DNA of 628 nt, taken from the sequence record DQ006815.1; one strand, given 5' to 3'. The notes under the pieces are model-generated. The model was given only the letters and a program-made list of their open reading frames with translations. It had not been told where the DNA came from and did no database searches. This DNA comes from a phage. The translations under genes and the position numbers were made by a program. This document shows, one piece after another, positions 1 through 628 of this stretch; positions within the stretch are counted from its first letter, which is position 1; each line of letters begins with the position of its first letter.

Positions 1-24
1 ATTTAACTGAGTATAAGAGGACAT
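1..24 (+). other. Partial 5' untranslated leader of an ssRNA phage genome (cDNA sense), upstream of the A2 start
   Basis: An in-frame TAA at 4-6 closes the A2 frame upstream, and the first downstream ATG is at 25-27. The stretch gagtataagaggacatatg matches my recollection of the Qbeta 5' leader immediately before A2. The window appears to begin a few tens of nt inside the genome, so the terminal 5' hairpin is not present. Confidence 0.75.
15..21 (+). promoter_or_regulatory. Shine-Dalgarno / ribosome-binding site for A2 (AAGAGGA)
   Basis: Purine-rich AAGAGGA at 15-21 with a GAGG core at 17-20, 4 nt upstream of the ATG at 25-27. The spacing is slightly short but workable for E. coli initiation. 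Confidence 0.7.
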
Positions 25-628
25 ATGCCTAAATTACCACGTGGTCTGCGTTTCGGAGCCGATAATGAAATTCTTAATGATTTTCAAGAGCTCTGGTTTC
101 CAGATCTCTTTATCGAATCTTCCGACACGCATCCGTGGTACACACTGAGAGGTCGTGTGTTGAACGCTCACATGGATGACTACTTACCTAATGTAAGTGG
201 TCGCCAGGTAAGGCGCACTCCACATCGTGTTACTGTTCCGATTGCCTCTTCAGGCCTTCGTCCAGTGACAACCGTTCAGTATGATCCCGCAGCACTATCG
301 TTCTTGTTGAACGCTCGTGTTGATTGGGATTTCGGTAATGGCGACAGTGCGGACCTTGTCATTAAAGACTTTGTGTTCCGCACCTTTGCACCTAAGGATT
401 TCGATTTCTCGAATTCCTTAGCTCCTCGTTATACCCAGGCCTTCTCCGCCTTTAATGCCAAATATGGCGTTATGATCGGTGAAGGGCTCGAGACTATAAA
501 ATATCTCGGGCTTTTACTGCGCAGACTGCGTGAGGGTTACCGTGCTGTTAAGCGCGGCGATTTACGTGCTCTTCGCAGGGTTATCCAGTCTTACCATAAA
601 GGTAAGTGGAAACCGGCTACTGCTGGTA
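25..628 (+). CDS. A2: Maturation (A2) protein of a Qbeta-like ssRNA phage, N-terminal 201 codons; 3'-partial, ORF continues beyond the window
   Basis: ATG at 25-27 follows an in-frame stop at 4-6 and an SD. The frame is open for 201 codons (25-627, plus 1 nt of the next codon) with no stop, whereas the other two + frames are stop-dense (for example frame +2 stops at 8-10, 14-16, 146-148, 161-163, 194-196). Translation: MPKLPRGLRFGADNEILNDFQELWFPDLFIESSDTHPWYTLRGRVLNAHMDDYLPNVSGRQVRRTPHRVTVPIASSGLRPVTTVQYDPAALSFLLNARVDWDFGNGDSADLVIKDFVFRTFAPKDFDFSNSLAPRYTQAFSAFNAKYGVMIGEGLETIKYLGLLLRRLREGYRAVKRGDLRALRRVIQSYHKGKWKPATAG. I recognise the N-terminal sequence as Qbeta A2 from memory; this is not alignment-verified. 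Confidence 0.92.
   Translation, partial: MPKLPRGLRFGADNEILNDFQELWFPDLFIESSDTHPWYTLRGRVLNAHMDDYLPNVSGRQVRRTPHRVTVPIASSGLRPVTTVQYDPAALSFLLNARVDWDFGNGDSADLVIKDFVFRTFAPKDFDFSNSLAPRYTQAFSAFNAKYGVMIGEGLETIKYLGLLLRRLREGYRAVKRGDLRALRRVIQSYHKGKWKPATAG
140..160 (+). other. Predicted RNA stem-loop (ACACAC / GUGUGU 6-bp stem, 9-nt loop)
   Basis: Manual pairing: a140-t160, c141-g159, a142-t158, c143-g157, a144-t156, c145-g155; loop 146-154 (tgagaggtc). An alternative extension pairs g147-c154 and a148-t153 with t146 bulged. Not checked with a folding program. Confidence 0.3.
158..169 (+). repeat. Copy 1 of a 12-nt exact direct repeat TGTTGAACGCTC (encodes ..V-L-N-A..)
   Basis: Exact 12-mer tgttgaacgctc at 158-169, identical to 305-316. 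Both copies sit in the same codon phase, 147 nt (49 codons) apart. Confidence 0.9.
305..316 (+). repeat. Copy 2 of the 12-nt exact direct repeat TGTTGAACGCTC (encodes ..L-L-N-A..)
   Basis: Exact 12-mer tgttgaacgctc at 305-316, identical to 158-169. Flanking bases differ (157 g vs 304 t; 170 a vs 317 g), so the identity is exactly 12 nt. Confidence 0.9.
392..421 (+). other. Predicted RNA stem-loop (12 bp with one U-U mismatch, 4-nt loop UUUC)
   Basis: Manual pairing: 392-404 (ctaaggatttcga) against 409-421 (tcgaattccttag). Pairs are c392-g421, t393-a420, a394-t419, a395-t418, g396-c417, g397-c416, a398-t415, t399/t414 mismatch, t400-a413, t401-a412, c402-g411, g403-c410, a404-t409; loop 405-408. 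Not checked with a folding program. Confidence 0.4.
397..408 (+). repeat. Perfect tandem hexamer repeat GATTTC x2, in codon register (encodes D-F-D-F, aa 125-128)
   Basis: Direct read: gatttc at 397-402 and again at 403-408. It lies inside the predicted hairpin at 392-421. Confidence 0.9.

Follow-up and report, generated by a model that had tools for sequence, protein, structure and literature searches.

In the 628-nt stretch of phage DNA analysed here (the window), the Shine-Dalgarno (SD) sequence of the A2 gene lies in a leader segment that is complementary to a segment of the A2 coding sequence about 400 nt further downstream. This complementarity is very probably best explained as the published silencing helix of phage Qβ, by which the A2 start site would be hidden, a reading favoured by the identity and coordinates of the paired bases, by folding, conservation, specificity and codon choice, by a series of chains of increasing length and by the literature. 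The helix counts among the classic cases in which an RNA virus controls a gene by folding its RNA: a maturation/lysis protein would be held at a low level and coupled to replication, and ribosomes would be denied access to the 5' end of completed genomes. The observation holds and is already known. Its re-derivation from sequence alone means that the first reading of the window was sound and that nothing is added to the published Qβ model, except for two modest extras, namely the differences in helix stability from strain to strain and a concrete design for a synonymous mutant.

Origin of the window and identity of the helix

The window is the 5' genome part of Qubevirus durum, a Qβ-type ssRNA phage, in the plus-strand sense. 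Its best blastn match is strain BR12 (FJ483842, record positions 38-665), with 97.1% identity over the full window length; other Qβ isolates share 91-96% identity with it, and MX1 and M11 share 75-77% in its 3' part only. Window position 1 corresponds to nt 38 of BR12 and approximately to nt 37 of AB971354. Since the A2 AUG is found at nt 61 of AB971354 and at window position 25, classical Qβ numbering is obtained by adding 36 to the window position. With this offset, window 11-21/423-438 becomes Qβ 47-57/459-474, which are the bases that PMC3718328 describes as a long-distance interaction, crediting it to Beekwilder et al. (1996, J Mol Biol 256:8-19). The window helix is therefore the published Qβ helix, the match at the nucleotide level resting on the coordinates as PMC3718328 quotes them. 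No Rfam family covered the region in a scan of the window at E≤1, and the search of an A2 N-terminal alignment against a collection of 5.8 billion proteins returned zero matches.

The A2 (maturation/lysis) ORF starts at window position 25 and is open past the 3' end of the window. The parts of the A2 start region and of the 5' domain to which it belongs are the following.

7..21, + strand: long-distance helix, 5' strand, in the A2 leader; 11-21 corresponds to Qβ 47-57, and 7-9 extend the helix past A10·C435
14..42, + strand: ribosome-protected A2 initiation region, Qβ 50-78 from Staples et al. 1971 as quoted by PMC3718328, placed with the offset of +36
17..21, + strand: A2 Shine-Dalgarno core GAGGA, paired with UCCUC 423-427; the same in 12/12 Qβ-type genomes; pair probability 0.85-1.0
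22..29, + strand: AUG-flank helix, 5' strand (CAU.UGCC), paired with 334-340 in the minimum free energy (MFE) fold; pair probabilities 0.84-0.97
25..27, + strand: A2 AUG start codon; the annotated CDS of BR12 and of Qβ starts at the homologous position
334..340, + strand: AUG-flank helix, 3' strand, partner of 22-29 in the MFE fold and by RNAalifold
392..421, + strand: conserved hairpin encoded by codons F-D-F-S-N-S-L, directly 5' of the anti-SD; -14.7 kcal/mol; 98% of cells paired
423..438, + strand: anti-SD, that is, the 3' strand of the long-distance helix, in A2 codons (A)-P-R-Y-T-Q; corresponds to Qβ 459-474; UCCUC 423-427 is the partner of the SD and 436-438 that of 7-9, with a bulge at G428 and, in this strain, a mismatch at C435

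The segment 11-21, which contains the SD, reads GUAUAAGAGGA (the same letters as GTATAAGAGGA), and the segment 423-434 reads TCCTCGTTATAC, with GTATAACGAGGA as its reverse complement. The two form 11 Watson-Crick pairs with G428 bulged, exactly as had been listed pair by pair in the first-pass annotation. Beyond the A10·C435 mismatch the helix continues with C7-G438, U8-A437 and G9-C436, giving a total of 14 bp with one mismatch and one bulge and a calculated energy of -16.9 kcal/mol (RNAduplex, 6-24 against 416-445). The annotation had also proposed that the 5' domain be folded as a whole and compared with published Qβ structures. The MFE of the whole window is -254.7 kcal/mol (z = -9.6 relative to shuffles), and this fold includes the helix, the pairs of which have probabilities of 0.85-1.0.

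In the predicted fold, the long-range helix and the AUG-flank helix meet an internal hairpin (341-389) and the hairpin 392-421 in a multibranch junction. The latter hairpin, described earlier as strong and as lying beside the partner segment, was recovered with a single unpaired base (C422) between it and the long-range helix, and coaxial stacking of the two is plausible. The tips of the predicted hairpins coincide with stem-loops 2, 3, 4 and 6 of the cryo-EM genome model (PMC8880383 Table S3), in which stem-loops are placed at nt 106-118, 128-140, 220-232 and 436-449 (PMC8880383). The last of these, stem-loop 6 ('CP-anchored'), corresponds to the tip of hairpin 392-421. The cryo-EM density was traced with the phylogenetic structure of Beekwilder, which includes the long-distance helix.

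Judged from the window alone, the significance of the helix is weak. Duplexes with the leader at least as stable were found in 8% of 300 dinucleotide shuffles of 28-628 (p≈0.08), in rough agreement with the earlier estimate that a match falling exactly on the SD would arise by chance at a level of a few percent. The weight in favour of the helix comes from the comparative evidence and from the literature. On the structural side, the analysis consisted throughout of thermodynamic prediction and sequence comparison.

Conservation and specificity of the pairing

For the comparison, 19 annotated Qubevirus genomes (ten Qβ-type strains, MX1, M11, SP, NL95, FI and four FI-like strains) were taken with 900 nt each from the 5' end, together with metagenomic contigs. 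The latter came from scans of IMG/VR and JGI metagenomes, which yielded, besides copies of SP and FI, a single Qβ-like contig and a single SP-like one. Folded alone, each of the 19 genomes paired its SD region with a segment located at AUG+395 to +417, as did the window and the Qβ-like IMG/VR contig. Among Qβ-type sequences, the MFE folds of the window and 11 further genomes all contain the helix, at probabilities close to 1.0. The SP-like metagenomic contig keeps a 9-bp complement that is unused in its MFE fold, so that global folding picks the homologous site in 21/22 genomes.

A protein-guided codon alignment showed that the partner always falls on homologous codons, (A/V/G)-P-R-Y/F-S/T, directly 5' of which lies a conserved hairpin encoded by F-D-F/Y-S/Q-N/S-S/V. 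The paired sequences differ between the three clades.

Qβ type: leader CUGAGUAUAAGAGGA, partner UCCUC(G)UUAUACUCAG; 15 bp with one bulged G in reference Qβ
MX1/M11: leader CAUUACUG..GGC, partner GCU.CAGUAAUG; 8 + 3 bp
SP/FI/NL95 group: leader GGAGAAUCUA, partner UAGGUUCUCU; 10 bp

Relative to Qβ, the pairing register is shifted by one codon (3 nt) in MX1/M11 and by two codons (6 nt) in group IV. Strict column covariation between clades was dropped as a criterion because of these differences of 3 and 6 nt in register. The alignments indicate instead that, between clades, the complement has been re-established inside the same stretch of about 20 nt, which is not column-by-column covariation. For the 14 group III genomes, RNAalifold returned the pairing of columns 11-21 with 426-437, the AUG-flank helix (columns 22-29 with 337-343) and the hairpin. 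With the structure held fixed, 93.1% of cells were standard pairs, versus 32-48% when the 3' partners were slid by 1-3 columns; the counts of positions with both sides changed in this alignment come from MX1/M11 only. The covariation between 11-21 and 423-434 for which the earlier annotation proposed a test was not seen column by column. Pairing is kept across three clades, and compensatory double changes in the helix were absent among the 12 Qβ-type sequences.

Each leader is also specific for the partner of its own clade. Calculated duplex energies ranged from -11.8 to -17.7 kcal/mol for combinations within a clade and from -3.7 to -12.4 kcal/mol for combinations between clades. In a leader-swap test, leaders of 20 nt were exchanged between genomes, the chimeras were refolded and the expected number of pairs with the homologous partner was counted; the leaders of SP and NL95 are identical, and each was scored as 'own' for the other. 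The Qβ body gave 14.7 expected pairs with its own leader and 0-5.3 with foreign ones, the corresponding values being 10.8 and 0.1-1.3 for the MX1 body, 8.2 and 0-3.8 for the SP body, and 8.7 and 0 for the NL95 body. In these predicted folds, exchanging leaders between clades abolishes the pairing. Isolated duplex energy was dropped as a means of ranking partner sites, given that MX1/M11 and some group IV genomes have equal or better sites elsewhere and global folding takes the homologous one.

The coding sequence of the partner was analysed by generating all synonymous versions of its seven codons and scoring them for pairing with the leader. Variants pairing at least as well as the natural sequence amounted to 2.0% for the window, 0.13% for Qβ and 3.7% for MX1, and to 8-30% for the group IV genomes, which is not significant. 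Codon choice in the window, Qβ and MX1 thus favours pairing.

The complementarity could alternatively be a chance match without structural or regulatory role, as the frequency of equally stable leader duplexes in the shuffles and the similar isolated duplex energies at other sites in several genomes might suggest. Such an origin is, however, difficult to reconcile with the recurrent use of the same site under global folding, with a complement re-created on different sequences over the same codons in three clades, with the loss of pairing on leader exchange and with the bias in codon choice. In addition, the helix belongs to the published phylogenetic model with which the cryo-EM density was traced. 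On these comparative grounds chance complementarity was rejected as extremely improbable.

Chain length, strain variation and A2 dose

When 5' fragments of rising length were folded and the mean unpaired probability of the SD region was recorded, Qβ and BR12 gave values of 0.52-0.69 at 80-460 nt, 0.04-0.11 at 470 nt and 0.04 from 480 nt on. In chains shorter than 460 nt, the SD is without a stable partner. In MX1 and SP the switch, at 460-480 nt, was less pronounced. The transition is predicted to be sharp, with the SD at its centre, and the modelled series matches the published description of Qβ control, in which the long-distance helix is a timer for A2 translation and the control is temporal, not exerted via a structural intermediate (PMC6071253; further literature on the mechanism is found in PMC2978339 and PMC4615214).

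In the mechanism that these data suggest, segment 7-21, including the A2 SD, would pair with 423-438 inside the A2 coding sequence and close a 5' domain of about 430 nt. Together with the AUG-flank helix (22-29/334-340), the helix would shut the A2 start site in the folded genome. On a nascent plus strand the start site would stay largely open until the replicase had copied about 470 nt, and ribosome loading would be possible on short nascent chains only. A2, which is present in one copy per virion and is the lysis protein, would thereby be held low and coupled to replication. The earlier proposal that the SD is sequestered, with translation limited to nascent or unfolded RNA, is supported in that the published Qβ model and the folding, comparative, leader-swap and chain-length analyses agree; from these analyses and from the literature, we infer that A2 translation is actually repressed in vivo.

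Natural strains differ in the distal part of the helix. All changes among the 12 Qβ-type sequences fall in the distal helix, and none affects the SD-core pairs GAGGA/UCCUC. A15 is replaced by G in five strains, giving a G·U pair. The Thr codon ACU is changed to ACC in the window, BR12, VK, BZ1 and a metagenomic contig (Ga0179939), giving A·C at window 10/435, and to AAC/AAU in FrSangria and FrMerlot, giving G·A; BZ1 has in addition CGC for CGU, giving A·C. Reference Qβ has U at the position of window 435, and its helix (15 bp with one bulge) has a calculated energy of -21.7 kcal/mol, as does the helix of HL4-9, compared with -16.9 kcal/mol for the window and BR12 and -13.7 kcal/mol for FrSangria. 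Helix stability in natural Qβ-type strains is therefore spread over 5-8 kcal/mol, a difference that stems from the distal mismatches.

Polymorphisms at Qβ 47 and 52 have been reported from evolved populations in two independent experiments (PMC3718328; Kashiwagi and Yomo, PMC3150450). Single changes were modelled at these and other helix positions (G47A/U, A52G, A51G, U471C, U465C and C470A). The resulting loss of duplex stability reached 6.2 kcal/mol at most and was essentially nil for A51G and A52G. None of the modelled single changes opened the SD at equilibrium, its unpaired probability staying at 0.03, and such mismatches could therefore affect the phenotype only through kinetics. When the anti-SD was altered synonymously from CCU CGU to CCA AGA (Qβ 460-465), the predicted SD accessibility rose from 0.03 to 0.45. 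Because distal mismatches vary the stability of the helix and mutations at Qβ 47 and 52 recur in evolution experiments, one may tentatively speculate that helix stability is an evolvable dial for A2 dose, and hence for lysis timing, acting via folding or breathing kinetics and not via equilibrium occupancy; we consider this idea doubtful at present.

Alternatively, the helix could be mainly architectural, closing the 5' domain for compaction, packaging, nuclease resistance or replicase passage, with SD occlusion as a secondary consequence; the coat ribosome-binding site, which is much stronger, would then largely set A2 output through cis competition. The tip of the adjacent hairpin (Qβ 436-449) does contact coat protein in the virion model, and the distal helix mismatches are tolerated in natural strains. 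Moreover, two bases of GGAGG are unpaired in MX1/M11, where the SD-core unpaired probability is 0.52 and the SD core is less completely paired than the part of the leader that precedes the SD. What the paired leader segment overlaps in all three clades is, nevertheless, the SD or the AUG, and no other part of the 5' UTR. A mainly architectural function would also leave aside the invariance of GAGGA/UCCUC in the Qβ clade while distal pairs vary, and the centring of a sharp predicted switch on the SD; reviews likewise credit the helix with translational timing (PMC6071253). The architectural and SD-occlusion roles are not mutually exclusive, and it is unlikely that the former is the main one.

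Relation to known control systems

The study of Beekwilder, Nieuwenhuizen, Poot and van Duin from 1996 is said to deal with 'Control of A-protein synthesis'. The silencing helix of the window has the distinctive features of the Qβ A2 SD/anti-SD interaction: the bases are homologous, the complement lies about 400 nt downstream, global folding of the window and of the 900-nt 5' regions yields the helix, by which the 5' domain is closed, and the helix is kept in groups III and IV. The two share the same nucleotides, a partner in the A2 gene, the adjacent hairpin and the proposed silencing of the A2 start on completed RNA. They differ in that the window strain has ACC for ACU, with the resulting A·C mismatch and a duplex about 5 kcal/mol weaker, and in nothing else.

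In MS2 and the group-I phages (Groeneveld 1995; Poot 1997; summary in PMC4615214), the SD is paired, within a cloverleaf of the 5' UTR, to an upstream complementary sequence (UCS), and a kinetic trap delays this pairing. The two systems are alike in that the SD of the maturation gene is hidden by a non-adjacent sequence and that translation can take place only on fresh, unequilibrated plus strands. However, the MS2 complement lies upstream, in the 5' UTR, and a metastable hairpin accounts for the delay. In the Qβ-type helix the complement belongs to the coding region, about 400 nt downstream, and the delay simply equals the time taken to synthesise it. The window does not have an upstream 5'-UTR complement of the MS2 type, its partner segment being 400 nt downstream.

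The cis competition between the coat and maturation ribosome-binding sites (Priano 1997; PMC2978339) involves the same A2 start site and leads to the same low A2 output. Unlike the helix, it operates through competition for ribosomes along one RNA, on top of the pairing. Full-length RNA yielded A2 once the coat ribosome-binding site had been occluded (Jayant, Priano and Mills 2010, PMC2978339); the helix is therefore leaky, and cis competition constitutes a second layer of control.

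Compensatory changes and laboratory variation in the 5' domain

The long-range helix, in which window 7-21, carrying the A2 Shine-Dalgarno (SD), would pair with the anti-SD at 423-438, closes the predicted 5' domain. Clear compensatory changes were found within the Qβ clade at three column pairs, all of them in internal hairpins of this domain, and they support the fold of this domain.

Compensatory pairs (window positions; alignment A2 columns; base pairs with counts)
184/196; columns 184/196; CG 7, UA 5
234/264; columns 234/264; UA 5, CG 5
352/378; columns 355/381; AU 7, GC 6

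Two independent Qβ laboratory evolution studies reported recurrent polymorphisms at the helix positions Qβ 47 and 52 (window 11 and 16), the changes being G47 to A or U and A52 to G. In silico, the G47 changes removed about 6 kcal/mol of duplex stability, and A52G was nearly cost-free because a G·U pair forms, almost no stability being lost.

Reference records and strain-specific differences

The RefSeq record NC_001890.1 is titled "Enterobacteria phage Qbeta", but its locus tags are those of MX1, and in both searches it matched the window with the same coordinates and identity as AF059242. Its A2, given the product name "head maturation protease", shares only 61% identity with the A2 of true Qβ. 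Use of this record as a Qβ reference is an annotation trap.

Window sites that differ
5; 147 and 184-186

At position 5 the window has A, versus C in all 11 other Qβ-type genomes. The T-L-K/R-G-R motif carries Arg rather than Lys, and an unusual codon encodes Tyr where Arg would stand (D-D-Y-L-P for D-D-R-L-P), a feature shared only with the Qβ-like IMG/VR-JGI metagenomic contig Ga0179939_1057709.

A second leader complement in group IV

In all group IV genomes (L013-L019, SP/NL95/FI-type) the leader/SD has a second, bulged complement, for example CUUCUCCUGCUGU, which is absent from Qβ-type genomes.

Second group IV leader/SD complement
About AUG+470 to +490; codons Y-L-L-L-L/V-F/V-R-R; L013-L019

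Lying some 75 nt 3' of the homologous anti-SD, it forms duplexes of -14.4 to -21.6 kcal/mol with the leader, and in chain-length folding it was the minimum free energy partner of the leader/SD in SP chains of 550-600 nt. This element may represent an alternative or back-up anti-SD.

In the SP-like metagenomic contig L024 (MAVO01000006.1), the Arg codon is AGA instead of AGG, which converts one U·G pair in the SD/anti-SD helix to U-A. At the 5' end of this contig (1-55), the first ~50 nt match part of the A2 coding sequence, comparable to SP residues Y-I-P-D-G-T-Y-V-R-L-D-G-H-V-K-F-E-G and joined upstream of an apparently genuine 5' UTR; this probably reflects either chimeric assembly or a rearranged RNA.

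Pairing of the A2 AUG flanks

Pair probabilities point to a second long-range helix, involving the flanks of the A2 start codon.

AUG-flank helix
Window 22-29 with 334-340; A2 AUG flanks (CAU.UGCC) with a segment ~310 nt downstream

In Qβ-type genomes the pairs have probabilities of 0.84-0.97. An analogous helix is present in MX1/M11 (CAUG with +314 to +317), and group IV genomes have G+2 paired near +362 to +368. The helix probably belongs to the published 5'-domain model.
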